Assembly: GCA_004563595.2 (NCBI GenBank) | Contig: CP042461.1 | Location: 630,001 to 662,000 of the forward strand | Source: Candidatus Saccharimonadota bacterium | GTDB lineage: Bacteria > Patescibacteriota > Gracilibacteria > BD1-5 > UBA6164 | Direction: 5' to 3' | Length of the DNA: 32,000 nt | Shown: one piece after another, positions 2,313 through 26,077 of the stretch | Layout of the letters: every line of letters begins with the position of its first letter | Numbering within the stretch: the first letter of the stretch is position 1 | Position numbers and translations under genes: made by a program | The notes under the pieces: generated by a model | What the model was told of the DNA's origin: nothing | Databases searched by the model: none | Seen by the model: the letters and a program-made list of their open reading frames with translations, nothing else

Positions 2313-3005
2313 TTGGATTTTTTACGCAATTAAAAGGACTTTTCGAGTGATAACATTCTTCCGGATTTACGCTCTGTAGACGTCCGGTGTTAGCAATGGA
2401 AAGCCAGTATGGCGGTGTATGTGCCAGTAAAGTTGTAAGGACATTATTGTAGTCCTATTTTAAAAAAAAGTGGGCTCTCAGAGCAGGATATTTGATGCTT
2501 TTTTAAGCATTTTTTATCTTTTTCTGAGAACTCACTAAACATAACAGGAGTTATGTTAATAAGAATCTATTTTAAATGGTTTTCAAATGTTAATAGCTTT
2601 AATATGCGTTTAATGTCTATTTAATGCGGATCTCCCCACATGCTATAACTTATGTTAAGTAGATCTTAACCATTTAAAGGGATAAGCTGTACTCTCACAA
2701 ATTACATTAATCACATAAAAATATGTTTTTAAAGATTTTTTAAGCCATTACTGGCTGAAATGCTCATTTTTGTACTTTCAATGTATATACACTGCAAACT
2801 TAGCTTTTTCAGTATCTCTTGACTGTTCAATCTGTAAAATCCTTATAAGCTGTTTTTGTAATTTTAACTCAAAACATGTTTCTAATGATGTCATAATTGA
2901 ATGTTCAATCATATTTGTTATTTCAATATAAAAATTTGACTACATATAATATTTACGTAAAATATTTTTATTCCGCTTATTCAATAAATAACTTGAGGTA
3001 TTTTT

Positions 3006-3311
3006 ATGAAAATTGGGTTGATCGTTTGTATTATAGTATTAGCTATTGTTTCTTTTGATAACTATCATATCAGGGTAAAACTTAGCAACCAAGTAAGTAT
3101 GACGAATCAGGTTCGATTTCATTTTGATCATTATAATGATGGAATAAGTGCGATTGTTTCAGCTTATAATGAAAAATGTCAAATTCCTACAGATACTGTA
3201 TTGGAGTTATCACTTTCTAAGCTATCTGGAAAGGAAAAATCTTATCCTGCTGTTACTCATATTATGAATAAACTCTCGGAATCTATAGGTGCTGTATCAA
3301 GTAATTGATAA
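3006..3311 (+). CDS. Small membrane-anchored protein, 100 aa (101 with a terminal Gly under code 25); autonomous cassette
   Basis: TTGACT-N16/17-TAAAAT promoter-like sequence at about 2937-2965 and GAGG 8 nt before the ATG. The N-terminus MKIGLIVCIIVLAIVSF is hydrophobic. All 4 internal Gly are GGN. The ORF ends TGA TAA (3306-3311), and a terminator follows. Confidence 0.6.
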
Positions 3312-3337
3312 TTTGTCGCTGAATAGAGTTAAAATAT

Positions 3338-3364
3338 CCCCCCTTAATAGGGGGTTTTATTTTA
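3338..3364 (+). terminator. Intrinsic terminator of the 3006 cassette
   Basis: ccccc-ttaata-ggggg hairpin followed by ttttatttt. Confidence 0.7.
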
Positions 3365-3465
3365 TTGATTTTTTTGTGGGTGTAGGCTACCCTTTAATTT
3401 AAATTATGACCTAAAGATGAAGACTACCCTCTTTCTTCGCTATGCTACGAAACAAATAGAAGAAT

Positions 3466-3502
3466 AAAAAACTAGCCCCCTAAAGCGTGGGGCTAGTTTT
3501 TT
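3466..3502. terminator. Bidirectional intrinsic terminator
   Basis: aaaaaa-CTAGCCCC-ctaaagcgt-GGGGCTAG-tttttt. It lies downstream of the minus-strand gene ending at 3548. Confidence 0.7.
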
Positions 3503-3547
3503 ATAGTAAATTTTATTCTATCTGATATAGAAGTATAAAGTATTATA

Positions 3548-3898
3548 CTACATATATTTTTTTGTAAGCTCATTTAATTCATCCATATCTATTTTTGCTA
3601 ATTTTTCAAGTCATATATCATTTATGTCTTCAGCAGATAACATATAACCAATTACAGTAATTTTTTCTACTGTCATTGATTCTAAAGAAAGAATTTCTAA
3701 TCAAATAGTATTTTTTTGTTGTTCGCTTAGATTGTTATTTATAGCTTCAAGTTTTTCTTTAGAAATATCTGAAGAATTAATGATTTCAGCATTTGTACGA
3801 GTAGTCTCTACAACTGCATTAATACCTTTTCACTGTTTAGATTCATTTTCTAATGAATTATTTTCTAGTTCTTCTCAATTCTCAGGTAATTTATCCAT
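3548..3898 (-). CDS. Hypothetical acidic protein, 116 aa (code 25)
   Basis: ATG 3898 to TAG 3548 is continuous with 4 TGA read as Gly (MDKLPENGEELENNSLENE...LTKKYM*). No SD and no recognisable domain. Confidence 0.5.
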
Positions 3899-4037
3899 TG
3901 TTTTATTTTAATTAATAATATTTATTTACGTAGATACTTGATATTAACATATAAATCATTAATTGTCAAATATATATTATTTTCATCATCTTGAAGTATT
4001 CAACAATAAGATAATAAGTTGCACTTAATTATATCTT

Positions 4038-4217
4038 TTATATATTCATAACATTATGGATAGAAGCATAAAACCAGATAGACATAATAAGAGCACTAAA
4101 TAGAATCTTGAAATGTCATTCTTGTTTCAGGATTATTAGAAAGATGATCAAAGGAATTATAAGAGTTTGGAACAAAAAGAAGGGGTAGTCTCATAGTCAT
4201 ATAAAATAATTGTACAT
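4038..4217 (-). CDS. Possible small membrane protein, 59 aa (code 25 only)
   Basis: GAGGAGGGGAG lies 10 nt upstream of ATG 4217. The translation MYNYFIGLGDYPFFLFQTLIIPLIIFLIILKQEGHF... is hydrophobic. It needs 3 TGA read as Gly; under the standard code it is only 6 codons. Confidence 0.3.
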
Positions 4218-4492
4218 AGGGTTATACTCCCCTCCTCAGATATTCAAAACAAGCTTGGTGGTAACTGAGTCAAAAATGAAGTAAAGACTAATCAGGTTAA
4301 TATTATATTTATAACCTGAATGTAACTTTAATATACTTAACTGATTCTTTATAGTTTTGTTTGTATAATTATTAACAAGGTAATAAATTTATGATTAAAT
4401 AATAATTTTTTATTTATGTTTTTACAAAATAATAGAATATTATATAATAATTTTGTTTTAGGTTAGCGTAATTTTACTAATATGGAGGATAT

Positions 4493-4792
4493 ATGTTACA
4501 TTCTAAAATTTCTGATGTAATAACCGGAGTGTTAAGAATAGTTTTTATTAGATCCTCAGGGTCAAAATTTATAACAATTTTTTTTATATTATGGTTTTTG
4601 ATATTACCATTTACATCATTGATTTCATTATCTATGTTGCTGATTAATTTTGGTTTTCCTATAATGTTAGAACATAAATTGCTTTATATTATACCTATAG
4701 GAGGTCTTATAGTCTCAGTAATATTGCCTTATTTTATTTATAAGCATGGTAAGCATTACTTGTTTTTCCACGTTATTGATAATGATTGATAA
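4493..4792 (+). CDS. Small integral membrane protein, 98 aa (99 with a terminal Gly under code 25); autonomous cassette
   Basis: TTTACA-N17/18-TATAAT upstream and GGAGG 5 nt before the ATG. Two or three hydrophobic segments. All 6 internal Gly are GGN. Ends TGA TAA (4787-4792). Confidence 0.55.
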
Positions 4793-4928
4793 GTATGTAA
4801 ATATGAAACCTTTGGCAGACATGCTAGAGGTTTTTATTTATCTTAATAGTCAGAAAAATCAATCCTTTTTGTTGACAATACAATTAATAATATATAATTA
4901 TACTGAAATTGTTCTAAGGAGACGAAAA

Positions 4929-5108
4929 ATGAATACTCAAAATATTCAATCTAATAAACTAACTAAGCAAGAGGAATCTCGTGCTGCTGTAGAATTATTA
5001 GTATCTGATGTAGATTTTGAAAGTATTGCTAAACGTACATGTGAACGTGATAGACTAAGAAGGATAAGACCATCTGATATGAAGAAGGTTTATAACTTTC
5101 GTAGATAA
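4929..5108 (+). CDS. Small basic protein, 59 aa
   Basis: AAGGAG lies 7 nt before ATG 4929 (MNTQNIQSNKLTKQEES...RIRPSDMKKVYNFRR*). Ends TAA TAA and is followed by a terminator. The 5' extension in the ORF track (from 4746) has no SD. Confidence 0.5.
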   Translation: MNTQNIQSNKLTKQEESRAAVELLVSDVDFESIAKRTCERDRLRRIRPSDMKKVYNFRR

Positions 5109-5131
5109 TAAATATTTCGTTACAATTTCAT

Positions 5132-5156
5132 AAGGGCCTAATGGCCCTTTTTTTAT
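5132..5156 (+). terminator. Intrinsic terminator of the 4493/4929 unit
   Basis: aaGGGCC-taat-GGCCCttttttt. Confidence 0.75.
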
Positions 5157-5192
5157 TGTTTAGACAATTGAGTTTTATCTTTAATTAGACAT

Positions 5193-5220
5193 AAAAAAAA
5201 AGCCGTGAAATTCACGGCTT
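5193..5220 (-). terminator. Intrinsic terminator of cassette 5225-5653
   Basis: aaaaaaaaa-GCCGTG-aaatt-CACGGC-tt, which reads as hairpin plus U-run on the minus strand. It is homologous to the hairpins at 5754 and 6274. Confidence 0.75.
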
Positions 5221-5224
5221 ATAT

Positions 5225-5653
5225 TTAGTAAGCAACAATTATATGATAATTATTCTCAGAATCTATTTCTGGAAAACTAACTTCACCAAAATGATTTATA
5301 CTTACTGTAATTCTTGATGAATGATCTTTTCTTAAAAGCACAATCTTTACTTTAGATAAGTCACCCCGAAACTTTCTTCCTATAAAGTTTCTTCCTAATT
5401 GAAATTTAAACCCTAACTTGATACCGTCATTATTAAAGCGTTTACGTACTTCAATAGATAAGTCACCCTCAAAATCTTCATAATTATCAAGGTTACTTTC
5501 ACTTAATACATAATCTTTTAATAGATTATGTATATGATCTTTTAGTTGAGGTGTTTCTATCTTAACAGAATTTGCTTTTTGTTGAGCTAGTTCTGTAATA
5601 TTTAGGCACGTTATATCATTTCCTTTATGATAACTTCTTTTTGCACTTTCCAT
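5225..5653 (-). CDS. Hypothetical protein, 142 aa; member 1 of a tandem paralog trio
   Basis: AAGGAG lies 8 nt before ATG 5653; the ORF-track start at 5722 has no SD. There is a TTGACT-N16/17-TAGTAT promoter. 8 Gly, none TGA. The C-terminal block is INHFGEVSFPEIDSENNYHIIVAY. Confidence 0.6.
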   Translation of the reverse strand: MESAKRSYHKGNDITCLNITELAQQKANSVKIETPQLKDHIHNLLKDYVLSESNLDNYEDFEGDLSIEVRKRFNNDGIKLGFKFQLGRNFIGRKFRGDLSKVKIVLLRKDHSSRITVSINHFGEVSFPEIDSENNYHIIVAY

Positions 5654-5753
5654 AACTACTACTCCTTTTAATATGGATTTCCATTTGCGCGTGCATACTA
5701 TCCAGACTTTTTTGTAAGTCAAGAATAAACTTTTATCTACTCATTTAAGCGTG

Positions 5754-5781
5754 AAAAAAGCCGTGAAGATCCACGACTTTT
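5754..5781 (-). terminator. Intrinsic terminator of cassette 5793-6170
   Basis: aaaaaaGCCGTG-aagatc-CACGaCtttt. Confidence 0.65.
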
Positions 5782-5792
5782 CATTTTCTAGA

Positions 5793-6170
5793 TTAAAAAA
5801 CGTTTAAGCTATATTCATTTATATGATGAGGTAAGACGAAAAAAAATCGACCATACTTATCCAGATTTGTGCATTTTATCTTGTTACCAAAACTGGTCAC
5901 AAGAATATTGGTAGTAGTAAAATGAACCTTTTTAGTATACTCTTTGTGTACTTGAAAAGATATATAAACTACTCTCCCCGCTTCTGTTATAAATGAACTT
6001 ATTAGAAGGTTCAAAAAGACTCCGTCTTTTGAAATTAATTCTACTAAATTACCTTCTTCGTCTTTTAATTTGAGGTTGTGCATAAGATCACTAACCTCCT
6101 TTACTAAGTCTTCATCAAAACAAATATCTTCTGATGTTTCATTAGTAATATTTACTTCAGCCACACCCAT
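5793..6170 (-). CDS. Hypothetical protein, 125 aa; member 2 of the tandem paralog trio
   Basis: AAGGAG lies 6 nt before the ATG, and TTGACA-N17-ACTATA is upstream. 6 Gly, none TGA. The C-terminal block is NLDKYGRFFFVLPHHINEYSLNVF. Confidence 0.65.
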   Translation of the reverse strand: MGVAEVNITNETSEDICFDEDLVKEVSDLMHNLKLKDEEGNLVELISKDGVFLNLLISSFITEAGRVVYISFQVHKEYTKKVHFTTTNILVTSFGNKIKCTNLDKYGRFFFVLPHHINEYSLNVF

Positions 6171-6273
6171 TTCATTCTCCTTTTAAAATTGGGTTCCATG
6201 CTATTTTATAGTATAGTAATTTAATCATATGTCAAATTTGAAAGTTTTGTATTCGGTTATTTAATATGCAAAT

Positions 6274-6299
6274 AAAAAGCCGTAAGATATACGGCTTTT
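6274..6299 (-). terminator. Intrinsic terminator of cassette 6318-6641
   Basis: aaaaAGCCGTA-agata-TACGGCTtttt. Confidence 0.75.
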
Positions 6300-6317
6300 A
6301 CATGTCTTAGCTTTTGA

Positions 6318-6641
6318 TTACAATTTTACTTTTATGGTGATAAGCGTTACTTGGTCCGTTAGAAACTCTATCATACCATTACTATCTACTTCCTGAAAAT
6401 CTTGTATATTAACCCCGTTAATTTCAACTGCAGCCCAAATTTGGCTTAGATTTATATTTTTTTTAGACTTATTATTAAAAGTTAGATAGATAAGTTTAGT
6501 CTTCCCTATATATTGAGTAATGAGCTCAAAATATAGGGAATAAGAAATAGAATCATTATCTTCATTCTGAAGGATAAGATTTCCTTTTATTTCTTCAATA
6601 CCTTCTTGTAATGTAATCATTGCTACTTGAGTATTTATCAT
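6318..6641 (-). CDS. Hypothetical protein, 107 aa; member 3 of the tandem paralog trio
   Basis: AAGGAG lies 5 nt before ATG 6641. A TTGACT-N17-ATTATA promoter sits just after the recX stop. 5 Gly, none TGA. The C-terminal block is VDSNGMIEFLTDQVTLITIKVKL. Confidence 0.6.
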   Translation of the reverse strand: MINTQVAMITLQEGIEEIKGNLILQNEDNDSISYSLYFELITQYIGKTKLIYLTFNNKSKKNINLSQIWAAVEINGVNIQDFQEVDSNGMIEFLTDQVTLITIKVKL

Positions 6642-6727
6642 TCTAGCTCCTTTTTGAATTATTTTACTCAGCATCTGTATAATATATATAAAATTAGAAG
6701 AGTCAAGTATGTCCTGATAATATATAT

Positions 6728-7321
6728 TTATTTATTTATTATTTCTTTAATATCACCATAGAAAAATCATTTTCTGAGAAGCTTTTCTATAATTTTCTTT
6801 TTTTCATATTTTCATTCAAGTTTTTGGTACTCATGAGCAAGGTTTTCATTATCTCACTTATCTCAAAATACAACACTCAGGGCATTCTCAACTCATTCTC
6901 TATCTAATTTTCTTTCTATTAATTTTATTTTTATATATTGAATAGACTTCCCTTTATTTTTAAAATTTTCAATTTTTCTGACAAGTGAATGCACATTTAA
7001 CAAACTATGTTCTTCGCTTCAAAATTCATTTGTTAATATTTCATTTATTCTATCTTTTGGAAATTGTTTTTTCATGAGATTGAGTTTGATATAGTTCACA
7101 TTTTTATTTCTAAAAATATAATTTTTTATGTTTGATCTGATAATATCATCCTCAGTGAATAGATGTTTAATTTGATCCAATACTCAATCTACGAGTTCCC
7201 TATCTTGTAGCGTTTTTTCTAATAATTTATTTTCAAGTTTTTTGTTTGATGGAAAATACCTAAAATAATACCATAAAGCATAGTCTTTGAGTCGAATGGA
7301 TGTTGTTATTATTTTATTCAT
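6728..7321 (-). CDS. recX: RecX-like regulatory protein, 197 aa (code 25)
   Basis: Continuous translation with 6 TGA read as Gly. The N-terminus YALWYYFRYFPSNKKLENKLLEK and the C-terminus KKIIEKLLRKGFFYGDIKEII match the repeated three-helix pattern of RecX (PF02631). No SD. Confidence 0.7.
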
Positions 7322-7333
7322 ATTCTAGATGTA

Positions 7334-7367
7334 TAAAAAAAGTGGCCCTGACTATTGAGTCAGGGCT
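7334..7367 (-). terminator. Intrinsic terminator of the 7380-7526 cassette
   Basis: GCCCTGACT-attg-AGTCAGGGC (9-bp stem), with the run of A (U on the minus strand) at 7335-7341. Confidence 0.75.
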
Positions 7368-7379
7368 ATGAAAAGTATA

Positions 7380-7526
7380 TTAATATACTTTAATAACGGG
7401 AGCCGGAAATGATGGATTTAATAATTTTTTTTGTTCCATTCGAGTCCGAAAAAACCTAAACACTCCATATAATGAGCCAAGTATAGCAACGCATACGAAG
7501 ATCCCATATAAGATTGATTGAATCAT
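7380..7526 (-). CDS. Small single-pass membrane protein, 48 aa; autonomous cassette
   Basis: AAGGAG lies 7 nt before ATG 7526 (MIQSILYGIFVCVAILGSLYGVFRFFRTRMEQKK...). 3 Gly, none TGA. TAA stop, then a terminator. Confidence 0.5.
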   Translation of the reverse strand: MIQSILYGIFVCVAILGSLYGVFRFFRTRMEQKKLLNPSFPAPVIKVY

Positions 7527-7578
7527 CTTTTTTCTCCTTGAGGTCTAAAAACCGTCTGTATTATAGTGATATTTATTG

Positions 7579-7626
7579 AATGTCAATCAAAAAAACATTG
7601 ACTTACTTATACATACAAATATTATT
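7579..7626 (+). promoter_or_regulatory. groESL promoter region with a 9-N9-9 inverted repeat across the -35 element
   Basis: aatgtcaat (7579-7587), N9, attgactta (7597-7605), with 7 of 9 positions complementary. TTGACT is at 7598-7603 and an A/T-rich -10 candidate lies 17 nt downstream. No CIRCE consensus (TTAGCACTC-N9-GAGTGCTAA) is present. Confidence 0.35.
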
Positions 7627-7657
7627 TTATATATTTATTTTTTTAAAGTTGAAATCT

Positions 7658-7933
7658 ATGGGTATCAAGCCATTAGCTGATAGAGTTTTATTAAAAGCAG
7701 TTACAAAAGAGAATGTGACAGCATCAGGGATATATTTACCAGAATCTGCAAATAAAGAAAGGTCGTATATGTATGAAGTAGTAGCTGTTTGAGCTGGAAA
7801 AAAAGATATTGATATGTCAGTCAAAATCTGAGATAAGGTTCTGAGTGGTCAATACTCATGAGATGATGTTAAAGTTGATGGAAATGAATACAAGATAGTT
7901 GCGATGGATTATATATTAGCAATTGTTGAGTAA
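7658..7933 (+). CDS. groES: Co-chaperonin GroES, 91 aa (code 25)
   Basis: MGIKPLADRVLLK...VAV[G]AGKK...VKI[G]DKVL...YS[G]DDVKVDGNEYKIV. All three in-frame TGA fall on conserved GroES glycines. Confidence 0.95.
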
Positions 7934-7950
7934 AAAGAGGAAAATAAAAA

Positions 7951-7996
7951 ATAACCCATCCCCCTTCGGGGACTTCCCTTCATCCGAATGGAAGAC
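7951..7996 (+). repeat. 46-nt double-hairpin intergenic element, copy 1 (after groES)
   Basis: ataacccatcccccttcggggacttcccttcatccgaatggaagac. Nearly identical to 9703-9748. Confidence 0.8.
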
Positions 7997-8027
7997 ATTC
8001 ATGTATTACCTATTAATCAAATAAACA

Positions 8028-9677
8028 ATGTCGAAAGAAATCAAGTACTCAGATGATGCAAGATCAATGATATTTAAAGGGATAGAGGTAGTTGCTAAAA
8101 CAGTAACTGTTACTATGGGGCCTAAATGAAGAAATGTTATCTTAGAGAAAGCATATTGAGCTCCTCAAGTAACAAATGATGGAGTAACTATTGCAAGAGA
8201 AATAGAGTTGGAAGATAAATATGAAAGTTTATGAGCTGAACTTGTAAAAGAAGCTGCTGAAAAAACGAATACTATTGCTGGAGATGGTACAACTACTGCT
8301 ACTCTATTAACATATGCACTTGCAAAAGAATGACTCAGATATATTAAGTCTTGAGTAAATGCAGTTGAATTAAAAAATGGTATGAAAAAAGCTGTTCAGC
8401 TAGTTTCTGATGAACTTGCTAAGAATTCAAAAGCTATTTCATCAAAAGAAGAAATAGCTCAAGTAGCGAGTATTTCTGCTCAAGATCCAGTGGTATGAGA
8501 AATTATTGCTGAAGCAATGGATAAAGTATGAAACGATGGGATTATTTCAGTTGAAGAAGGTCAAACTTTTGGTTTAGAAGTCGAAATAACTGAATGAATG
8601 GAATTTGATCAAGGATATTTGAGTCCTTATATGGTTTCAAATCCTGAAAAAATGCTTTCAGAAATAAAAGATGCTTCAATTCTTATTACAGATGGGAAAA
8701 TATCTAATATGCAAGACTTGTTACCTCTATTAGAATCTTTGGTTCAATCAGGAAAAAAAGATCTTGTTATCATTGCTGAAGATATTGAATGAGAAGTCCT
8801 CACTACGATTATTTTAAATAAACTCAAAGGTATATTAAATGTTCTTGCGATAAAAGCTCCATGATTTGGAGATACAAAAAAAGAAATGATAAAAGATATA
8901 GCTATTCTTACTTGAGCGAATGTCATTGCATCAGACTTAGGTATGAAAGTATCAGAAGTGAGTTTAGATGATTTATGAAGTGCGAAGAATGTGATGGCAT
9001 CAAAAGACGCAACCACTATTATTGCATGAAGCTGACATAAATCAGATATTGAATCCAGGGTTTCAGAGTTAAAACTTGCTATAGAAAACAGTGATTCTAC
9101 TTTTAATAAAGACAAATTAGCTGAGAGAATTGCAAAACTTGCATGAGGAGTTGCTATGATTAAAGTATGAGCTGCTTCAGAAGTTGAAATGAAAGAAAAG
9201 AAATTAAGAATTGAAGATGCATTAAATGCTACCAGAGCTGCTGTCTCAGAATGAGTTGTTGCATGAGGTTGAGTTGCTTTACTTACTGCTTCAAAGATTT
9301 TGAAATGAGTTGATTTTTGAAATGAAGACCAAACTCTTTGAGCTTCTATAGTGAAACAAGCTTTATCTTACCCAATGAAACAAATCGCAGAAAACTCTGG
9401 GAAGGAATGATCAGTAATTATGAGTAAAATTGAAGAGAGTGATAATATATTTTTCTGATATGATGCTGCTTGAGATAAATATGTTGATATGATTGTTGCT
9501 TGAATTCTAGATCCTAAAAAAGTTGCGAGAGTTGCTCTTGAAGAAGCTGTTTCACTTGCTGGTATGTTTTTAACTACAGAAGCTGCTATCACTTCCCTTC
9601 CTAAATCGGAATCAGATCTTCCAATGGGATGAATGTGAGCTGGAATGCCAGGTATGGGTGGAATGCCAATGATGTAA
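8028..9677 (+). CDS. groEL: Chaperonin GroEL, 549 aa (code 25)
   Basis: [12 protein letters not shown]...GPK[G]RNV (TGA 8127-8129)...AGDGTTTAT...C-terminal [12 protein letters not shown]. It shares its frame with the ORF-track fragment 8598-8792, and dozens of in-frame TGA align to Gly. Confidence 0.97.
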
Positions 9678-9702
9678 TAGAAAAATAATTGAAAAACCTT
9701 TA

Positions 9703-9748
9703 ATAACCCATCGCCCTTTGGGCACTTCCCTTCATCCGAATGGAAGAC
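9703..9748 (+). repeat. 46-nt double-hairpin intergenic element, copy 2 (after groEL)
   Basis: ataacccatcgccctttgggcacttcccttcatccgaatggaagac. It differs from copy 1 only within hairpin 1, and the stem is preserved. Confidence 0.8.
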
Positions 9749-9767
9749 TTATTTTGTTATAATTATC

Positions 9768-10178
9768 ATGATTTGCAATAAAAAAGCTTTTTCATTGGTC
9801 GAGGTAATTGTTGCTGCAACGATATTATCAATTTCAGTTTTTTGAGTATACAAATTAATATGAGAGAATAATAAATTGTTACATAATTCAGGGAATTATC
9901 TCCAGGCAAATATGTTATTTATTCCTTTTATCGAATGTCTTGATAATATTTGATTTGATTCATTTTCTGGATCAAGTACTCAGAACTATACTTTTAATTT
10001 TTGATCAGATAAAACATGATGTTTTACATGATCTATAGATGTAGTAGAACTTGATAATATTGAATATGAATTATCTTGAGTTATTACTGGTTCTTGATCT
10101 GAGTTTATCGACTGGGATTTACAGATTTCGAATGATAATATATGAGTTATTGAAAATACATATAAACAAATAAAATAA
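9768..10178 (+). CDS. Prepilin-type N-terminal cleavage/methylation domain protein (pseudopilin or minor pilin), 136 aa (code 25)
   Basis: MICNKKAFSLVEVIVAATILSISVF has a class III signal-peptide-like motif with Glu at +5 and Ala instead of Gly at -1. Checked codon by codon; about 11 TGA read as Gly. Confidence 0.75.
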
Positions 10179-10180
10179 AT

Positions 10181-10218
10181 AAAAAAAAGACACGAGTAGC
10201 TTTCTCTTGTCTTTTTTT
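10181..10218 (+). terminator. Intrinsic terminator after the pseudopilin gene
   Basis: aaaaaaaAGACAcGAG-tagcttt-CTCtTGTCTtttttt. Confidence 0.7.
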
Positions 10219-10518
10219 ATATAATGCTTACTAATTCCTTTTTTTCAGATAGAGTCATATATCAGATATATCGTAAAAATGAAACTTTTTCAGCGATAGT
10301 TAATTTTTTAGAACATGATATTGCATCCAAGACCATTGGTTCTAAAATTACTTTACTTTTTCACATATTTTTTTATATTATAATGAATAATATTGTTATT
10401 TGGAGTTTTAATCTATTATTAACTTCTCCACTAAAATAATTTAAGTATACCTCTATATTAAACCATAGATATTAATAATTGTCAAATATCTTCCTATTTT
10501 TTAAAAGACTTCTTCTTT

Positions 10519-10995
10519 ATGATTATTCTTTGAATTGATCCATGAACAACAACAACGGGTTTTGCTCTTATTAAAAAGGAATCTTGAAATTTTACATTAC
10601 TTGATTATGGTATATTTAAAACGACTCCAAAAATAGATTTAGCAATTAAGCTTTTAGAAATCTGAAATGATATAAAAGAAATTATATCTTCTTTTAAGCC
10701 TGATGTTGTAGTTATTGAAAAGCTTTTCTTTCAAACAAATTTAAAAACAGGTATCGACGTAGCACAAGCAAGATGAGTTGTTATGTATGAGTCAATAAGA
10801 GCTGATACAAAGATACTTGAGTATACTCCCCTTCAGGTAAAAAAAGCTATCACATGAAATGGTCAAGCAAATAAACTCCAACTTCAGAATGCAATTAAGA
10901 TGATATTTAAGCTTGATGAAATCCCAAAACCTGATGATGCTGCTGATGCTATTGGTCTTGCGTATATGGGTGCTTTGAATAATAGGTTGACTTAA
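10519..10995 (+). CDS. ruvC: Holliday junction resolvase RuvC, 158 aa (code 25)
   Basis: MIIL[G]IDP[G]TTTTGFALI (TGA 10531-10533 and 10543-10545 on the invariant glycines)...VVVIEKLFF...PDDAADAIGLAYM. Confidence 0.92.
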
Positions 10996-11071
10996 CTTTG
11001 CTCTCAGAAAATAAATATAGCAGATGTGGTTAATGTATAGACTTTTTAATGTCTACTAAAATTAAAATTGC

Positions 11072-11103
11072 AAAAACCATTCATTTTAAATGAATGGTTT
11101 TTT
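11072..11103. terminator. Bidirectional intrinsic terminator (ruvC and the 11138 cassette converge on it)
   Basis: aaaaaCCATTCAT-ttta-ATGAATGGttttttt. Confidence 0.75.
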
Positions 11104-11137
11104 AGATAACAGTTTTCATATTGAAACACCGAGTTTT

Positions 11138-11365
11138 TTATAACATGAGAAGTATAAATAATTTATCATATTCTGATAAATGGTATTCATATTCTATATA
11201 TAAATCTTCGTGAATACACCAGAGAGAACAAGTAACATTATTGTATGTATCAATATTTGATAAACAATAAGCTATAAGTAGCTCAATATGTTTTATACTT
11301 AGTTTTGTATTTTCTATTTTTATTTTCCTCTCGTTGAGTTGCGTTTCTATTATGTTTTTAGTCAT
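11138..11365 (-). CDS. Hypothetical protein, 75 aa; autonomous cassette
   Basis: GGAGG lies 6 nt before ATG 11365. TAA stop, no TGA, and the terminator at 11072-11103 is downstream. No recognisable domain. Confidence 0.5.
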   Translation of the reverse strand: MTKNIIETQLNERKIKIENTKLSIKHIELLIAYCLSNIDTYNNVTCSLWCIHEDLYIEYEYHLSEYDKLFILLML

Positions 11366-11540
11366 GAATATCCTCCATGTAGTTTATTTAATGTATTCTT
11401 TTGTTATAGAATACATACTTATTTATACTAATTTTTTTTATAAAATCAATTCATTGATTTGCTATAATGGTTCTCTCTTTTTTAAAACTCTCTTTTTCTT
11501 TTGCAAAACATCTATTTTCTATATAATTTTAATGCTTTCT

Positions 11541-11617
11541 AAGGACCTAGCTTAATTAGAAGAGTGCTCGGATTCCGACCCCGAGAAGCGTACGTGCAAT
11601 TCGTGCGGTCCTTGCCA
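11541..11617 (+). tRNA. Atypical tRNA-like gene with encoded CCA; probable anticodon CCG (Arg)
   Basis: Perfect 7-bp acceptor stem AAGGACC/GGTCCTT, discriminator G, then CCA. T arm is GTACG-TGCAATT-CGTGC. Anticodon stem is CTCGG/CCGAG with a 9-nt loop ATTCCGACC, or a 7-nt loop TTCCGAC if A.C closes it. The D stem is weak (G.T, C-G, T-A, T.G), and the loop AATTAGAA lacks GG. Confidence 0.55.
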
Positions 11618-11632
11618 TATAAATTTTAAGCC

Positions 11633-11671
11633 AAAAACCACTTATTTTCAAGAAAAAAATAGGTGGTTTTT
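11633..11671 (+). terminator. Long hairpin plus T-run after the tRNA
   Basis: aaaaaCCACTTATTTT-caagaaa-AAAATAgGTGGttttt. Confidence 0.65.
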
Positions 11672-11711
11672 ATAATATACTAGTATTTTTATATATTATG
11701 TGTTTACTTTT

Positions 11712-12239
11712 TTATAACTCATTTTCTAAATGAATCAAAGCAGTTAAAATTGCTTGTTTAGTAAAATCTTTTCTAAGTAATCTATTTTTTGATAATATGC
11801 CAATTGCTCATCATGCTTGTCATAATGATGGATTATCAGTAAAACCAGCTTTTAAATACGCTTGGTTCATATCTAGTTTTTCGACCAAGATTAAGTCTAT
11901 AATAGTTTTTGGACTTTCATAAGCAGAAGATAATCCTATATGATATTGATTTCCATCATAAATTACACATGCACATACGTTCATAAAGCCTGACTTAGTA
12001 TTAGCTACAAGCATCAGTCCATCTTCTATGCCAAAACTAATTCAATCAGATTCATAAGAGTTATAAGCTCTATTTTTAGCTCCTTCAATTGTTTCTTCTA
12101 ATGACTTAGGTTGTTCAGAGACATGAGAAGGAACAACTTTTTCAAATATTTTTGCTTCCCTAAATAACTCGTAATCTCTAATACTTTCTTCAACTGCAGT
12201 TACTTTATTTTGATTTTTAGAACCTACAAAAACTTTCAT
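11712..12239 (-). CDS. Non-canonical purine NTP phosphatase (YjjX / NTPase I-T, DUF84-like), 175 aa (code 25)
   Basis: MKVFVGSKNQNKVTAVEE...VPSHVSEQPKSLEETIEGAKNRA...[G]ISFGIEDG...[G][G]AIGILSKNRLLRKDFTKQAILTAL. This joins ORF-track fragments 12042-12239 and 11820-12014 in one frame. Confidence 0.8.
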
Positions 12240-12467
12240 AAAAATAATACTTATTAAATATATTTATTTTAGTCTATGATAATAAAATAGCTAGTCAAAG
12301 TATTCTTTATTTTAGATTAAAGTATTTATTATTATTTGTTAAAGATTGCATCTCTATCAAATAATAATAAACTGGTGAATGATATTTATTAGAAGAAACT
12401 TTATTAATTCTATAGTTTTCGATCTTAATTATTACTCAATATATACTAATATGTTATAACTTTATTT

Positions 12468-13160
12468 ATGATCCAAGCTCATTTAAAGACATTAAAATTT
12501 GATTTTTCTCAACTTGATGGTAAGCAAAAATATATATGAGATATTCCCTCTTTAAGGAAACTTACTGAATTGGAGATAAATAACAAAATTACGTATTTTG
12601 TTTGAGAAAATGGTGCTTGAAAATCTACATTAATAGAAGCTATAGCAACCAGTTTTTGATTTAACAAAGAATGATGAACGAAACATTCATTATATCAAAC
12701 AAATGATACTGATAATGGAGTATCAGATTGGATTAACTTATCATGGCAGCCTATAAAATATAAAAATGGTTTTTTCTTCAGAGCTGAATGAATATATAAC
12801 TTTAATAATTATTTAGAAGAAATCGATGGTTTTTCTGCATATTGATGAGATAATTTACACAATTTCTCTCATGGTGAACAATTTATGAAAATTATTGAAT
12901 CGAGAATGGATACTGTTTGATTTTATATACTTGATGAAATAGAATCTGCCTTATCAGCAACAAATCAGCTAAAATTAGTTGAAATCATAAAATATATGAG
13001 ATCAATGTGAAGTCAGTTTATCATAGCAACCCACTCCCCTATAATATTATCAATATCAGATAGTGATATATTATCATTTGATGATTGAGAGATACAAAAA
13101 ATTGATTATGATTTTACCCCCTGTGTAGATATATATAAAAGAGTTTTACTTAAAAAATAA
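12468..13160 (+). CDS. ABC/AAA-type ATPase of unknown role, 230 aa (code 25)
   Basis: Walker A is FV[G]EN GA[G]KSTLIEAIA, there is an SHGE signature-like motif, Walker B is FYILDEIESALS, and IIATHSP follows. Checked codon by codon; ends TAA 13158-13160. Confidence 0.8.
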
Positions 13161-13220
13161 TAGATCTCTATGAAAAAACCTTAAATAGCTATATTTTACT
13201 TATATTTTCTCTTCTGCACT

Positions 13221-13251
13221 AAAAAGCACAGGATAAAATCCTGTGCTTTTT
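13221..13251. terminator. Bidirectional intrinsic terminator between convergent genes
   Basis: aaaaaGCACAGGA-taaaa-TCCTGTGCttttt. Confidence 0.8.
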
Positions 13252-13259
13252 AGTTTTTC

Positions 13260-14846
13260 TTAATTCTTAAAACAACGAATAGCAGAACCCGTTGGACGTT
13301 CTATAGAATGAATAGCAGAAACGGCTGATTGAGTTGATACTCTTAAGACGTATCCATTCAAACTTGCTGGTGAAGCACTTGCATAAAATCCTATGATTTC
13401 TGTAGATGCTAAGTAAGCATTCCAATGTTGACGGTACCCATTTAATGGTAATTTAAGAGTACTTCTTATGGCTGCCCCATTATTTTGCCATCATCATGCT
13501 ATTACTACACCACTCCATTCCGTATAGGCAGGTATATGATATCATGTAACACATGGTCATTGCATTTTAGTTTGGTTACTAGGATCTGAGCTAGAATAAG
13601 TAGCTGTTGAACTATTTACAACTCACCAATCATTGGCACTTCATGCATTGGTTCATCCTGGTGACTTCCAATCATAACTCCATGAAGAGTTTGAATTAGT
13701 CCATGTTCCGTCTTCATAACTTACGTTTCTACCAAATTGGAAATGACCTCAGTATGAACTTGCAGTTGTTCATGCTATATTAGTTCATAGATTACAAGCT
13801 GATATTGTAAAAGGTCAATATCAATTTGCTGCTGGAACTGTTATATCATCTGTATCACATCATGGGTAATTAGCGTATTCATGGAATGCACTACAAGCAT
13901 TATTTTCTCATCAATTCAGACCATCACATGTCCATGTATAATTACTTCATTCTCATCCATCTGTTACGCTTGTTTGTGTTCAAGTGACACAGAGGTTAGT
14001 TGGTGTGGTTATGAAACTTCATGAATTATCTGATCCACATATCCCATTTTCTGGTGCTACATAATCTGATACTTTTCCTGTAATAATAGTTTCTGCAAAA
14101 TTTCGAGCTGTTGAGCTATCTAAACTTGCTACCACTGCATATATTTCATCATTCAACTCTGAAGTTGTTGAATATGCTGTTTTAAGGGCAAGAGCAAAAT
14201 TTTCATAGTTATCTTTTATATTATTACTGGTAAGTATTACTCATGAATTTGTAAGTTGTACTACTTGATAGTTTACAATTTTATCATTGAGTTCAAAATC
14301 CACTGCAGTGTCTAAGTCTTCTGCTGATGTATGAAGTCATGGGACTCCATAATAACTTCCATTATCTGCCAATAGATATAATCAGTTATATGTTCATTTT
14401 ACATATGGTGAAGTTGATTCTGCATAGCTTGTATTTGTGATGTTATTTTGTGCTAATTCAAAGTCATATTTTAATTCATATTCTTTCCTACTTAATGTCG
14501 TTGCATATTTCATAGTTTCCCCTGTTTTTGGATCTAGTGGTAATTTAGAAAGTCTTTCCACTTGTGTTTGTACTGTAGTATCCATATTTCAAGACTTCCA
14601 TAATATAACGGTTCATCATGAGGCTGTTATGTCTGAAGAATTTCAAGGGAGTGGATATTTTCCAGTTTTTAATGCAAAGAATTCTAATACATTTTCAGTA
14701 TTTTTTATATCTGTTATTCTTGCTCCATTTCGTGCATGCTTACTATATCATTGTAATGATATAAACGCTATAGTTCATAGGATTGTTAGAATAGTAATCA
14801 CTACTATTAATTCTACCAGAGTAAATGCTTGTTTTTTTAGATTCAT
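13260..14846 (-). CDS. Type IV pilin-like protein with a C-terminal FISUMP (Fibrobacter succinogenes major paralogous, TIGR02145-like) domain, 528 aa (code 25)
   Basis: MNLKKQAFTLVELIVVITILTIL[G]TIAF prepilin motif. The C-terminus carries [G]PCVT[G]YHIPAYTEWSGV...FYASASP...SAIRCFKN*. The whole ORF was checked codon by codon, and it includes ORF-track fragment 14394-14585. Confidence 0.8.
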
Positions 14847-15058
14847 AATATATATATTAGTAATAATAAGACTTATAACTTATTCACACAATAATGTATC
14901 AATGAAAAAATAATATTTTTAAATGAGTGTATGTCAAGTAAAAAATCCCTTTATCTAGCTTAAAACTACTAGGCATCATTTTTCAAATTAATCAAATAAA
15001 ATGCTTTGTATTTTAGTTTGGAGAAAAATAAAATTTTTAATAGATTAACTCTAAAAAC

Positions 15059-15086
15059 AAAAAAAAGGTGTGAACACACCTTTTTT
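15059..15086 (-). terminator. Intrinsic terminator of the PilZ cassette
   Basis: aaaaaaaGGTGT-gaac-ACACCtttttt. Confidence 0.75.
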
Positions 15087-15097
15087 ATCATTCATAT

Positions 15098-15550
15098 CTA
15101 TCACTTAGGCATAAGTGATAGTCCCCTTTTTTGCATTATTTTTTTTGGTTTATAGGAGTCAAAAATTTCAATTGCACTGTGTAATTGATCTTCATGAACA
15201 GCTGATAAATGCGTAAATACAAATGCAGTACCATCACCTTTATCATCCCTGACGTGACGTAAGAAGCGAGCTTGGAGTTTTTTCAATGTTAATTTTTCTG
15301 ATGGTGAGTGTAAAATCAGTGTACTAAAATTACAAATCTCTCCTTGTTTTAGTGTTTTAAATCCACAACTATCATCTAACGTTGATAGATAGACACAACC
15401 CCCTTTTGTATTGATATTAATAATACCAGTAGTAAATGGTGCATGTGTTGCTGGAGTACCAAACCTAGGAATATAAATTTGAGCTTGAAAATTTGCATTG
15501 ACTCGAGAACTTTTTCTATCAGTTTTTTCATTAGGTTGTGCTATAGACAT
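15098..15550 (-). CDS. PilZ-domain-like protein, 149 aa (150 with a terminal Gly under code 25); autonomous cassette
   Basis: RKSSR (RxxxR) is followed 29 residues later by NINTKGG (D/N-x-S-x-x-G-like). GAGG lies 6 nt before the ATG. 9 internal Gly, none TGA. Ends TGA TAG (15103-15098). Confidence 0.6.
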
Positions 15551-16872: not shown

Positions 16873-18600
16873 TTATGGTAAAGCTATACCTCTTGTCATA
16901 AAATATATAATTGCGCAGAGACTTCCTGATCCAGGAACTGTTAGTACCCATGCTGATGCAATTTGTATCATATTTTTTTTAAGATTCAAGCTTCTTTGCT
17001 CTATTTCATGTTCTTTTTCTTGTGCTTTTCCTTTTTTCCTTTTAGCTTCTAATAATGAAATATTTAGGTGTATAAGTGTATCTTGTAACTTAATTATCTC
17101 ATCTTTAGTTATCTCATCTGGTTCAGCGATTGCTGATTTTCCATCTAAGACTGATTCGGTTTCTTTTATTTCTTTTTTTATTCTGTTTACTTTTTTCTTT
17201 CTTTTATTAATTTTTTTATGTGCATTCTCAAGTAGATTTGCATTTTCCCAGAATTTCGATCTTTCGCTATCTCCTTGTGGTTCTAGGATAACTACAATTT
17301 TATTTATCCATCCAATTATAGTTGGAAAATAAGCAACTGCAAATACACCTCCAACAGCTATATGAGTAGAACTAACTGGTATTCCTAGTTGTGACGCAAG
17401 AATTACAGTACAAGTTGATCCCATTGCAATAGAGAACGATCTTATTGGGGTAAGTTCTGTTATATCGCTTCCGACTTTTTTGATAATTCTTTTTCCAAAG
17501 AATCCAAGTCCGATCACAAGTCCTACAATACCAATGCCCATTATCCATAGGGGTATTGCTGCTTTTTTTGATATGCCATTATTAATAATCGCATCATAAA
17601 TTGCTGCGTATGGACCAATTGCATTTGCTATATCATTTGCTCCATGCGCAAAACATAACAGACAGGCTGCTCCTATTAATGGTTTGATAAAAAGATCATT
17701 TATCCAGTTGATGTTAGTAACAGAATTAGTAATACTCTTCTTATCAATTTTTGAAGTAGCTTTCTTAATTATTGGTTTTGCTATCAAATACGCTACAGTT
17801 GCTATACCAAACCCAATGAGTACTGCAACACTGGCATCTAAGCTTATTACTTTTTTTAATCCTTTAAGTAAAAGATAAGTAGTTGCTGACCATGTCATTA
17901 TTGCAATAACTAATGGAATTACTTTTTGTGCTGCAGCTAATTGATCTTTTTGATAAACAATAAATCTCTTAATAAACCATAAGAAGATAGCTGTTATTAT
18001 TCCACCAAGTACTGGTGAAGCAACCCAACTTCCAACAATTTTTAAAACTGTCCACCAAGCCACAATATCAAGACCACCAGCTGCTATTCCTCCTCCCAAT
18101 ACTGCTCCTACAATAGAGTGAGTCGTTGAGACCGGTGCTCCTAGTTTTGTTGCGATATTTAACCATATTCCTGCAGCAAGTAATGATGAAACCATTAAGA
18201 AAATATATTCATGTATATTTGATGAAAACATACTAGGATCAATAATTCCTTTTTTGATCGTTTTAACAACATCACCACCAGCTATGAATGCACCACCAGC
18301 CTCAAAAATAGCAGCTACAATAAGTGCAGTAGTTAATGAAAATGCTCCTGCTCCATATGCAGGACCAATATTGTTTGCTACGTCATTTGCACCAATATTT
18401 ACTGCCATATAGCCACAAACTAATGCACCAAATGCAAGAGTATAACTTGCGTTTATAATTGTGTTATCATATAGTGTAATTGTTCCAGCAAAGTATACAT
18501 ATATAGAACATGTAAGTGTTGCTAGGACTATTGCAGTAATAATGATAAAAAAATTATTAATTGTAATAGACTTATTATTGTCTACAGTTGTAGTATTCAT
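16873..18600 (-). CDS. Inorganic phosphate transporter, PiT/PHO4 family (PF01384-like), 575 aa from the second ATG
   Basis: The two PiT signature repeats GANDVANNIGP and GANDIANAIGP are present, with many TM segments. GAGGGG lies 6 nt before ATG 18600, and TTGACA-N18-TATATA is upstream. About 48 Gly codons, none TGA. A charged coiled-coil-like insert of about 100 aa lies near the C-terminus. Confidence 0.9.
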   Translation of the reverse strand: MNTTTVDNNKSITINNFFIIITAIVLATLTCSIYVYFAGTITLYDNTIINASYTLAFGALVCGYMAVNIGANDVANNIGPAYGAGAFSLTTALIVAAIFEAGGAFIAGGDVVKTIKKGIIDPSMFSSNIHEYIFLMVSSLLAAGIWLNIATKLGAPVSTTHSIVGAVLGGGIAAGGLDIVAWWTVLKIVGSWVASPVLGGIITAIFLWFIKRFIVYQKDQLAAAQKVIPLVIAIMTWSATTYLLLKGLKKVISLDASVAVLIGFGIATVAYLIAKPIIKKATSKIDKKSITNSVTNINWINDLFIKPLIGAACLLCFAHGANDIANAIGPYAAIYDAIINNGISKKAAIPLWIMGIGIVGLVIGLGFFGKRIIKKVGSDITELTPIRSFSIAMGSTCTVILASQLGIPVSSTHIAVGGVFAVAYFPTIIGWINKIVVILEPQGDSERSKFWENANLLENAHKKINKRKKKVNRIKKEIKETESVLDGKSAIAEPDEITKDEIIKLQDTLIHLNISLLEAKRKKGKAQEKEHEIEQRSLNLKKNMIQIASAWVLTVPGSGSLCAIIYFMTRGIALP

Positions 18601-18882
18601 ACACATCCCCTCATTATGAGTTTTTGAAAAGTTTATAAAACAACGTATATATAGTATGATTTTTTGTATATTGTCAAAAAGTATTTTAAATAATACTTGT
18701 ATAGTAACTGCACATGTAACAATTTACATTAGGTTCTTTTAAGACTTCGATGCTAATATAAGATTCTAATTATTTGATAATGATATATGTTAGAGGTAAT
18801 TTAGATATAGAAATTATAAATGAGTACTTAGAAAAACCTGGTTTTGAGCTTTTAATAATTGAAGCTTTTGGATAAATAATTT

Positions 18883-18914
18883 AAAAACCCTCAACCTTAT
18901 AGTTGAGGGTTTTT
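18883..18914 (-). terminator. Intrinsic terminator of cassette 18917-19324
   Basis: aaaaaCCCTCAAC-cttata-GTTGAGGGttttt. Confidence 0.8.
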
Positions 18915-18916
18915 AT

Positions 18917-19324
18917 TTACGATAACAATGGTTCTTTCAAAACTAGAGATGCATTTGGAGCAAATTCTTCGAATGCACTAATTACTTTATCTAAAGCATG
19001 TTTATTGTTAAATAATGATGGTAAAATTGGGCTGATGTTCAGTTTCTTCAATACCTCTTCAGTTTCATTAGAAAATTTAACTGTACTCATAAGAGCTTGA
19101 GATATTTGAGAATTATCAAAATCAGGTCCTTCAATATTGCTAATTATAGCCGACTGTGAAGAGTCTAGCGTCAATATTCCATGCCAGTATTCAAAGGCTG
19201 CAGAACTACTTTCATCACGTAGTTTTCTAATATCGTTACATAATGATTCTACGTTTACTTCAGCTACATATGATGATAACTCTAGAGCATCTTTCAATAA
19301 TTCATCACCATCTTTATTATCCAT
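18917..19324 (-). CDS. Hypothetical acidic protein, 135 aa; autonomous cassette
   Basis: AAGGAG lies 8 nt before the ATG. TAA stop. 3 Gly, none TGA. No recognisable domain. Confidence 0.55.
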   Translation of the reverse strand: MDNKDGDELLKDALELSSYVAEVNVESLCNDIRKLRDESSSAAFEYWHGILTLDSSQSAIISNIEGPDFDNSQISQALMSTVKFSNETEEVLKKLNISPILPSLFNNKHALDKVISAFEEFAPNASLVLKEPLLS

Positions 19325-19438
19325 TATTATTACTCCTTTTTAATTTTTAATAATTATGGCCTAAATATTTATACGAATACTTTGTAATAAGTCAAAATAG
19401 TTTTCTTTTATTTAGAAAATAAGTGAGAAAGGTAAATT

Positions 19439-19469
19439 AAAAGGCTCACTTATAAGTGAGCCTTTTTTT
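19439..19469 (-). terminator. Intrinsic terminator of cassette 19491-19865
   Basis: aaaaGGCTCACT-tata-AGTGAGCCttttttt. Confidence 0.8.
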
Positions 19470-19490
19470 AATCATGAGACATAGGTCTAT

Positions 19491-19865: not shown

Positions 19866-19972
19866 TTTTCACTTTTCCTTTTTTGATTATTGTCAATGAC
19901 GAAGGAGTTATATTGATAAATATGACTAAGTCAAGAAAATATATAAAAATAAAGTATTGTATTATACAAGTT

Positions 19973-20000
19973 AAAAGAGCTATTATTCAATAGCTCTTTT
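19973..20000 (-). terminator. Intrinsic terminator of cassette 20035-20391
   Basis: aaaaGAGCTATT-attc-AATAGCTCtttt. Confidence 0.75.
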
Positions 20001-20034
20001 AATTGTATTCAATATATTTTGGTAATTCTTAACT

Positions 20035-20391: not shown

Positions 20392-20476
20392 ATTTAATAC
20401 TCCCTTTTTTATTATAAACAATATGTATAAAAAACATATTATTTATAATGTTATTTAATATTAAGTCAATATTAAC

Positions 20477-25251: not shown

Positions 25252-25353
25252 TAAGAGAGTGTCATAATATTTAGCCACTTTTTATTATTAATAACTATTA
25301 ATTTTTATTATACATAGATAATCGATTATTTATAATTTGAAAAATAATTAATA

Positions 25354-25991: not shown

Positions 25992-26014
25992 TTACTCAAG
26001 GAGGAGTAATCAAC

Positions 26015-26050: not shown

Positions 26051-26077
26051 ATAAGATTTAACTCATTCAAACAGATA

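Follow-up and report, generated by a model that had tools for sequence, protein, structure and literature searches.

Probable relic stop codons, now read as glycine, in accessory genes of a Gracilibacteria chromosome

How can a gene end in TGA if the bacterium decodes this codon as glycine? The question is raised by a stretch of 32,000 nucleotides from a Candidatus Saccharimonadota bacterium (GTDB lineage Bacteria; Patescibacteriota; Gracilibacteria; BD1-5; UBA6164; GenBank assembly GCA_004563595.2, contig CP042461.1, positions 630,001 to 662,000 of the forward strand), which was analysed as a whole and is called the window in the following. Three open reading frames (ORFs) of the window end in a TGA that is followed directly by TAA or TAG. 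An earlier interpretation made without any database search (the sequence-only reading) had called these TGAs fossil stop codons, as expected if the genes once used TGA as a stop and survived their transfer because a backup stop followed, but also if they are made to terminate properly in either code. According to our analysis, the accessory genes of the window are indeed likely to be fairly recent imports from an AT-rich, standard-code gene pool that uses Shine-Dalgarno (SD) motifs, and their terminal TGAs are likely to be relic stops that now specify glycine.

The genetic code of the window is code 25, in which TGA stands for glycine. The encoded proteins match those of Candidatus Gracilibacteria bacterium 28_42_T64 with 100% identity; its closed genome was annotated with code 25, and prfB, the gene of release factor 2 (RF2), was not detected in it (Sieber et al., 2019; PMC6851277). 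Read with the standard code, the window has just 22 ORFs of at least 100 codons; if TGA is taken as a sense codon, long ORFs with 18–29 in-frame TGAs each emerge. Code 25 follows from GroEL, where TGA occupies universally conserved glycine positions: 28 of its 52 glycines are encoded by TGA, some of those in the GGG and AGILDP motifs included, and VVAGGGV, for example, is written GTT GTT GCA TGA GGT TGA GTT. In the native ORFs, TGA makes up ~5% of all codons and matches glycine, not tryptophan. Taken together, the 19 native genes of the window, which include groES/EL, ruvC, polA, and genes for an S41 peptidase, pilins, and a rhodanese-like protein, use TGA for 252 of their 407 glycines (62%) and terminate exclusively in TAA and TAG. 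Neither an RF2 gene nor a tRNA-Gly(UCA) lies within the window; its sole tRNA gene, found by ARAGORN at 11541–11617 (+), encodes tRNA-Arg(CCG), and no Rfam family reached the gathering threshold.

Alongside these genes the window contains a second class, 13 accessory ORFs devoid of internal TGA (Table 1), and one further ORF of this kind lies just outside it. Not one of the 115 internal glycine codons in the TGA-free set is TGA, as opposed to 62% in the native genes (P = 5e-49), and the two classes alternate at least eight times along the window. The three endings are exactly where they had been reported, with AAT TGA TAA at 3303–3311 (+), GAT TGA TAA at 4784–4792 (+), and AAG TGA TAG at 15106–15098 (−), and the terminal TGA is the sole in-frame TGA in each of these ORFs (ORFs 1–3 in Table 1). 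The probability that the only three TGAs among 118 glycine codons would all be C-terminal by chance is 4e-6; the terminal TGAs behave like stops, unlike the glycine codons of the TGA-free genes. Counted over 14 TGA-free accessory ORFs, the stops comprise 9 TAA, 2 TAG, and 3 TGA, a mix as expected of an AT-rich organism with the standard code.

The donor pool would consist of bacteria or their mobile elements. Genes from such a source would lack internal TGA because TGA was a stop in the donor, and approximately 1 in 5 of them would have ended in TGA. As the genome showed no gene for RF2, UGA is expected not to terminate in the recipient; a glycine tRNA would read UGA, and release factor 1 would end translation at the next in-frame UAA or UAG. 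Judging from the established properties of code 25, the products of ORFs 1–3 would gain one C-terminal glycine each (...SSNG, ...DNDG, and ...MPKG) and would otherwise be the same as the donor versions.

Table 1. Accessory and native features of the window (positions counted from its first nucleotide; minus-strand signals are written in reading direction).
Feature	Position	Strand	Description
ORF 1	3006–3311	+	Accessory ORF, 100 aa + 1 Gly, hydrophobic N-terminus; 0 internal TGA, 4 GGN
ORF 1 promoter-like site	2936–2963	+	TTGACT-16 nt-TAAAAT
ORF 1 SD motif	2995–2998	+	GAGG
ORF 1 putative relic TGA	3306–3308	+	Now Gly; read from sequence
ORF 1 working stop	3309–3311	+	TAA
ORF 1 intrinsic terminator	3339–3354	+	Hairpin, CCCCCTTAATAGGGGG then T run
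ORF 2	4493–4792	+	Accessory ORF, 98 aa + 1 Gly, hydrophobic, membrane-protein-like; 0 internal TGA, 6 GGN
ORF 2 promoter-like site	4421–4448	+	TTTACA-16 nt-TATAAT, 11/12 matches
ORF 2 SD motif	4484–4488	+	GGAGG
ORF 2 putative relic TGA	4787–4789	+	Read from sequence
ORF 2 working stop	4790–4792	+	TAA
ORF 2 terminator	4805–4834	+	Hairpin
ORF 3	15098–15550	−	Accessory ORF, 149 aa + 1 Gly, ORFan, formerly "PilZ cassette"; 0 internal TGA, 9 GGN
ORF 3 promoter-like site	15617–15590	−	TTGTAA-16 nt-TATAAT
ORF 3 SD motif	15559–15556	−	GAGG
ORF 3 putative relic TGA	15103–15101	−	
ORF 3 working stop	15100–15098	−	TAG
ORF 3 terminator	15086–15061	−	
Left cluster, TGA-free ORF	4929–5108	+	Ends in TAA; SD motif in 3/4 ORFs of the cluster
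Left cluster, TGA-free ORF	5225–5653	−	Ends in TAA
Left cluster, TGA-free ORF	5793–6170	−	Ends in TAA
Left cluster, TGA-free ORF	6318–6674	−	Ends in TAA
TGA-free island	16873–20421	−	Between native transglutaminase-like and spermidine-synthase-like genes
PiT/PHO4 phosphate transporter	16873–18606	−	48 GGN, 0 TGA
Orphan TGA-free ORF beside PiT	18917–19324	−	
Orphan TGA-free ORF beside PiT	19491–19865	−	
Orphan TGA-free ORF beside PiT	20035–20421	−	
Two tandem TGA-free lipoprotein units	25351–26329	+	ORFs 25449–25991 and 26161–26268
groES-groEL	7658–9677	+	Native comparator; TGA at conserved Gly; no SD motif
Ndk	27209–27652	−	Native; 0 TGA, 8 GGN; no SD motif

Are these genes foreign? The TGA-free accessory ORFs differ from the native genes in their translation signals. 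An SD motif (GGAG, GAGG, or AGGAG, located 5–10 nt before the start) precedes 10 of the 13 accessory ORFs, all three relic-stop ORFs included; it is missing from all 19 native genes in the window, and over the code-25 loci only 8 of 455 TGA-using ORFs have one (Fisher p = 1e-12, even with Ndk counted in the TGA-free set). The native genes of this lineage are thus essentially without SD motifs, and the imports carry them.

They also lack counterparts in relatives. Ndk led to six syntenic loci (L044, which lies on a contig of 1.05 Mb, L045–L047, L054, and L055). In these, Ndk is followed by PolA, a small ORF, the S41 peptidase, and the transglutaminase-like protein, and in several of them the rhodanese gene adjoins Ndk. 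Many of the native flanking genes of the window have counterparts in syntenic relatives (GroES/EL, RecX-like, RuvC, PolA, S41, transglutaminase-like, rhodanese, and Ndk), whereas the six loci contain nothing homologous to any of the TGA-free accessory ORFs. Where Ndk abuts PolA in the relatives, the window has TGA-free ORFs between PolA and the 280-aa ORF beside Ndk, and the content of the PiT island is missing from the equivalent position in L044, L047, and L054. L047 instead has different TGA-free, SD-bearing ORFs, which follow the transglutaminase-like gene and one more native ORF. SD-bearing ORFs without TGA occur in other Gracilibacteria as well: an MlaA lipoprotein gene in L047 (4214–4987, +; 0/25 glycine codons), a three-gene operon with a Band_7/SPFH protein in L053 (4766–7236, −; 0/15, 0/19, and 0/10), and a glucosaminidase-like protein in L017 (3056–3523, −; 0/11). 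Accessory genes with a few TGAs, namely those for an aldo-keto reductase in L047 (2/14) and for MscL in L048 (1/10), look like older imports. The nearest named homologues of PiT outside the lineage are ~50% identical and belong to Campylobacterales and Gammaproteobacteria. A scan of metagenomes with PiT peptides gave no match, not even to the source contig, which shows that the collection lacks this sample.

Every accessory unit comes with a promoter-like site of the sigma-70 type and an intrinsic terminator of its own. The TGA TAG of ORF 3 lies inside a perfect 10-bp stem (CTATCACTTA/TAAGTGATAG) with a 4-nt loop that is formed from the last eight codons (15098–15121) just upstream of the real terminator, and the regional fold z-score is −4.1. 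The two lipoprotein units share near-identical promoters (25351–25389 and 26075–26113; TTGACA, 16 nt, TATATT) and near-identical terminators (25987–26052 and 26264–26329) around ORFs of 180 and 35 aa with unrelated mature parts, and stand between PolA and a 280-aa native ORF (26331–27173) preceding Ndk; a public gene call of 37 aa on the opposite strand at 26161–26268 is probably wrong. The term cassette, by which the accessory units had been described, does not apply in the integron sense. Like integron cassettes, small and mostly orphan ORFs are inserted serially at particular spots between conserved genes. However, no integrase was found among the window ORFs, the units share no attC-like repeat at their boundaries, where just the local duplicates at 25351–26329 and simple terminator hairpins are repeated, and each unit has its own promoter, SD motif, and terminator; integron cassettes are largely promoterless.

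PiT aside, Pfam gave no match for the accessory units, and the PHROGs, PADLOC, and NCBIfam scans yielded nothing but one weak and implausible methyltransferase match of 5796–6170. ORFs 1 and 2 likewise have no relative in viral contigs or related loci, and since code 25 underlies the public gene calls, these have no record of the 100-aa form that code 11 would give for ORF 1. The ORF 3 protein matched only itself (NCBI A9Q91_03075) in 5.8e9 clustered proteins and 1.84e9 representatives, the latter searched by phmmer. The label PilZ that it had been given could not be verified, since no Pfam match appeared even at E <= 10 and phmmer found nothing else. By eye, RKSSR (residues 12–16) fits RxxxR, one of the two motifs that we take to be characteristic of c-di-GMP binding by PilZ domains, but NINTKG ~30 residues further on has an asparagine at the expected serine of the other, (D/N)xSxxG. 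A single-sequence AF2 model (mean pLDDT 35) was too poor for a fold search.

The accessory ORFs are short (59–180 aa) and without homologues, and the window holds just three cases of the peculiar ending, so that one might suspect spurious ORFs, a chimera of code-25 and standard-code DNA, or coincidence. At 28% GC, however, base composition leads one to expect ~1 spurious standard-code ORF of 100 codons in 32 kb, and 13 are present, each with promoter, SD motif, and terminator properly placed (SD by motif count in 10/13). PiT differs from its orthologue on locus L002 by 66 non-synonymous and 102 synonymous codon differences over 575 codons, counts that we read as purifying selection. The same proteins are encoded both by the 1.34-Mb genome, which is closed and curated, and by an independent JGI contig of 418 kb, no single mis-join would account for the repeated alternation of gene classes, and the probabilities of the endings by chance range from 4e-6 to 6e-3. 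An explanation by chance or artefact is thus hardly credible.

Absence of TGA also occurs in native genes. Ndk was considered as a further import, which is ruled out by syntenic orthologues of 67–95% identity in many Gracilibacteria and by the lack of an SD motif; a lineage-specific HASD motif was seen by eye in the alignments. A glycine-free DNA motif served to retrieve 43 Ndk orthologues (Ndk loci: the window, L035, L044, L047, L048, L051, L053–L055, and L057–L111); TGA accounts for 17% of their glycine codons compared to 55% in neighbour genes, and in many lineages for none of 10–14, although the neighbours use 70–85% TGA. TGA-free and TGA-rich alleles are interleaved in a neighbour-joining tree, the use of NNC codons is raised, and the Ndk motif was also found on the standard-code contigs L075, L084, and L090. 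A second native gene avoiding TGA encodes an 86-aa RRM-type RNA-binding protein, with 0 TGA, 8 GGN, and no SD motif (L053, 7494–7754, −; L061, 5914–6174, +). Selection against UGA in translation appears to exist in the lineage, and the accessory ORFs might themselves be native genes that avoid a slowly or inaccurately decoded codon, their terminal TGAs being incidental glycine codons. The low TGA content of Ndk, its raised NNC, and the RRM gene, TGA-free without an SD motif, agree with such a view, but it can explain neither a lone TGA in last position nor the SD motifs. A gene avoiding TGA would not place its sole TGA last, and here this occurs three times (P = 4e-6); the accessory ORFs carry SD motifs, in contrast to Ndk, the RRM gene, and 98% of the native genes; they show no NNC enrichment (0.15); and they are missing from relatives. 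High expression was rejected as a general cause of TGA avoidance, because no depletion is seen in GroEL, a classic example of high expression (0.67 vs. 0.71). Selection against UGA is therefore a highly improbable origin of the endings. Because Ndk and the RRM gene are native and TGA-free, the SD motif and synteny are needed in addition to call a gene foreign.

How rare is an ending of this kind? The ORFs of the window and of the Ndk loci were pooled with those of 55 metagenome loci and of 8-kb blocks that surround groEL in ~33 GTDB genomes, all of them using code 25. Three of ~485 TGA-using ORFs in this pool end in TGA plus stop (L023, 368–1324; L055, 28–618; L110, 185–406), as opposed to 3 of 15 in the TGA-free set (Fisher p = 4e-4). 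The statement that no backbone gene ends this way thus holds within the window (0/19) but not in the pool, and such endings are far from equally common among TGA-rich backbone genes, the observation by which the sequence-only reading had proposed to refute itself.

The position of the second stop is less easily interpreted. Of 312 genes, 26 (8.3%) have an in-frame TAA or TAG directly after the stop, and such a codon follows at a median distance of 6 codons. An immediate backup in 3 of 3 cases consequently has p = 6e-4, or ~6e-3 if the preference of TGA stops for T at position +4 is allowed for. Standard-code bacteria favour T after TGA stops, which alone enriches stops at +1 (Ho and Hurst, 2019; PLoS Genet; PMC6764699). 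T directly follows TGA at all three window sites, and such a T, favoured by RF2 in the donors, would also raise the odds of a following TAA or TAG. The arrangement resembles fail-safe tandem stops, where a second in-frame stop directly after the first limits read-through; in standard-code bacteria, only genes terminating in TGA are enriched for an additional stop at +1, and this was ascribed to the +4 T preference rather than to selection for a backup (Ho and Hurst, 2019; PMC6764699). In contrast to tandem stops, read-through of TGA in the window genes is expected to be constitutive, as no RF2 was detected, and the second stop is the only stop.

Two additional cases from other Gracilibacteria came through a metagenome motif scan: L072 9981–10406, which ends GGC TGA CTG TAA, has an SD motif, and reaches an ORF GC content of 0.38 in a locus of 0.25, and L109 9208–9444, which also has an SD motif and ends TGA GGC CTC TTT TAA. 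No ORF with a TGA-free body and a lone TGA 4–29 codons before its end was found in the collected loci. The backup distances of the five cases are 0, 0, 0, 1, and 3 codons, i.e., all within 3 codons (p ~1e-3), which suggests that imports do not persist if their read-through tails are long; those with short tails would be preferentially retained. Of the fossil-stop account, the origin of the TGAs as former stops in genes with a standard-code past is supported by the SD motifs, the missing counterparts in relatives, and the stop mix, while survival owing to the backup stop is no more than suggested by these distances.

The residence time of the accessory genes can be gauged from native genes. Between L044 and both L045 and L046, 8 of 180 conserved glycine pairs have switched between TGA and GGN at a four-fold-site identity of 0.59–0.85; in deep relatives, the states are equilibrated, with a switch in 22 of 51 pairs from PolA and S41. 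Given this switching, 0 TGA in 115 codons implies that the TGA-free genes have resided here for a short time, and a short residence in turn implies that their AT-rich codon usage was brought in and not acquired in place. From these features we infer both the direction of the transfer, which would have led into the code-25 genome, and its recency. The compositional signatures of horizontally acquired genes decay after transfer, a process known as amelioration. The foreign features seen here, i.e., the lack of TGA-encoded glycine, the SD motifs, and the higher GC content in L072, are likewise expected to decay. Unlike in ordinary amelioration, the discriminating codon differs in meaning between donor and recipient, so that its count starts at exactly zero and a former stop is left behind as a sense codon.

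Several observations weigh against a one-way import. As Ndk and the RRM protein are native yet poor in TGA, a TGA-free gene is not by itself proof of import. Except for glycine, codon usage is the same in both gene classes (GC3 0.175 vs. 0.177), so that the donors must match the recipient in AT content, and a co-adapted mobilome fits equally well. No donor lineage was identified, with PiT at best ~50% identical to named proteins and the ORFans without homologues, and the protein, viral, and phage scans gave no homologue of the three relic-stop ORFs that could show a TGA stop or a GGN glycine at the same position. The retention filter is a matter of five cases, a small sample partly chosen after the fact, and the rates given here stem from ~37 kb of a 1.34-Mb genome.

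The same observations could be accommodated by a maintained bilingual design, in which a mobile pool, e.g., of broad-host-range phages or plasmids, shuttles between code-25 and standard-code hosts and selection keeps the bodies free of TGA, the SD motifs in place, and TGA stops backed, so that both kinds of host would produce an identical protein. A precedent are standard-code-compatible phages predicted to infect Gracilibacteria and Absconditabacteria, which have no in-frame TGA and whose TGA stops are closely backed by alternative stops (Liu, Jaffe, Chen, Bor and Banfield, 2023; mBio; PMC10746230). The shared codon usage outside glycine would be expected of a co-adapted mobilome; the backup distances are short; most members are ORFans laid out like phage morons, with promoter and terminator of their own; and the PiT orthologue on L002 (89% amino acid identity), despite its synonymous differences, is also TGA-free, with promoter and SD motif conserved. 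As proof of selection against TGA, however, the PiT pair was rejected: switching between TGA and GGN is slow, ~2.5 gains are expected, and their absence is not significant (p ~0.08). No phage or plasmid hallmark gene is present, the tested accessory ORFs have no match in PHROG, PADLOC, IMG/VR, or GenBank phages (tblastn against 50,697 phage records), and the units do not form one element but stand alone or in small groups at separate places among housekeeping genes. Moreover, the integrated prophages were all code 25 in the phage study (Liu et al., 2023; PMC10746230). We therefore rate the bilingual design below a one-way import and regard it as unlikely.

A more far-reaching variant, to which we attach still less credence, views the SD-bearing, UGA-free genes as a selectively maintained bilingual set that is expressible both in the Gracilibacterium and in SD-dependent standard-code cells. 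The reason could be shuttling on broad-host-range elements between the episymbiont and bacterial hosts; in the radical version, some genes, e.g., that of the phosphate transporter, would be meant for expression inside the host or prey cell. If this were true, the avoidance of UGA in native ndk would constitute a second layer, comprising genes that are translatable when UGA decoding is unavailable.

The likely import of resident genes extends a principle that has already been stated for phages of Gracilibacteria. The logic is the same, in that genes without in-frame TGA, and with endings like TGA TAA or TGA TAG, function in a code-25 host. Those phages, however, are free genomes tied to their hosts by CRISPR spacers, and the integrated prophages of that study are TGA-rich (Liu et al., 2023; PMC10746230), whereas the window genes are chromosomal, scattered among housekeeping genes, without phage hallmarks, and SD-bearing unlike the genes of their host. 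What is new is the resident chromosomal setting and the SD contrast as a marker.

Some further features of the window and of the collected loci were noted. A relatively GC-rich 47-nt repeat (94% identical) with two potential hairpins follows groES (7950–7996) and groEL (9702–9748) on the plus strand. The 422-aa ORF at 1044–2312 (−), which adjoins the left-hand cluster of TGA-free ORFs, contains 22 TGAs and has no Pfam or PHROG match; its motifs HRLDIAIDLPYD and VRRIELELR recall what we take to be features of rolling-circle replication initiators. In the ORF-free and slightly GC-richer stretch 2313–3000, a long imperfect palindrome occupies 2455–2548, and Rfam miRNA matches to it are at chance level. 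The 70-kb locus L004 (IMG/VR UViG_3300030685_000003), filed as viral, has a match at 9543–9577, within groEL or elsewhere, to a groEL-derived DNA motif with TGA at glycine, and its ORFs use TGA for ~34% of glycines; either the contig comes from Gracilibacteria/Absconditabacteria and was misfiled, or it represents a code-25 element.

For the biology of these organisms, the findings offer a view of gene flow across a genetic-code boundary, in which standard-code genes can enter a UGA-reassigned bacterium and work there, the sole scar of import being a stop codon that has become a C-terminal glycine. Three marks, namely no internal TGA, an SD motif, and a TGA near the true stop, appear to flag recent imports into code-25 genomes, and no homologue is needed for their recognition; the SD motif is such a marker in its own right and raises the question of how SD-bearing mRNAs are initiated in this host. 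The TGA count of a gene may serve as a rough clock of its residence. Caution is advisable in annotation, as code-25 genomes hold genes that look complete under code 11, and whatever follows a lone TGA at the C-terminus may be a read-through tail. Finally, the enrichment of very short tails hints that the length of the read-through filters which imports persist.

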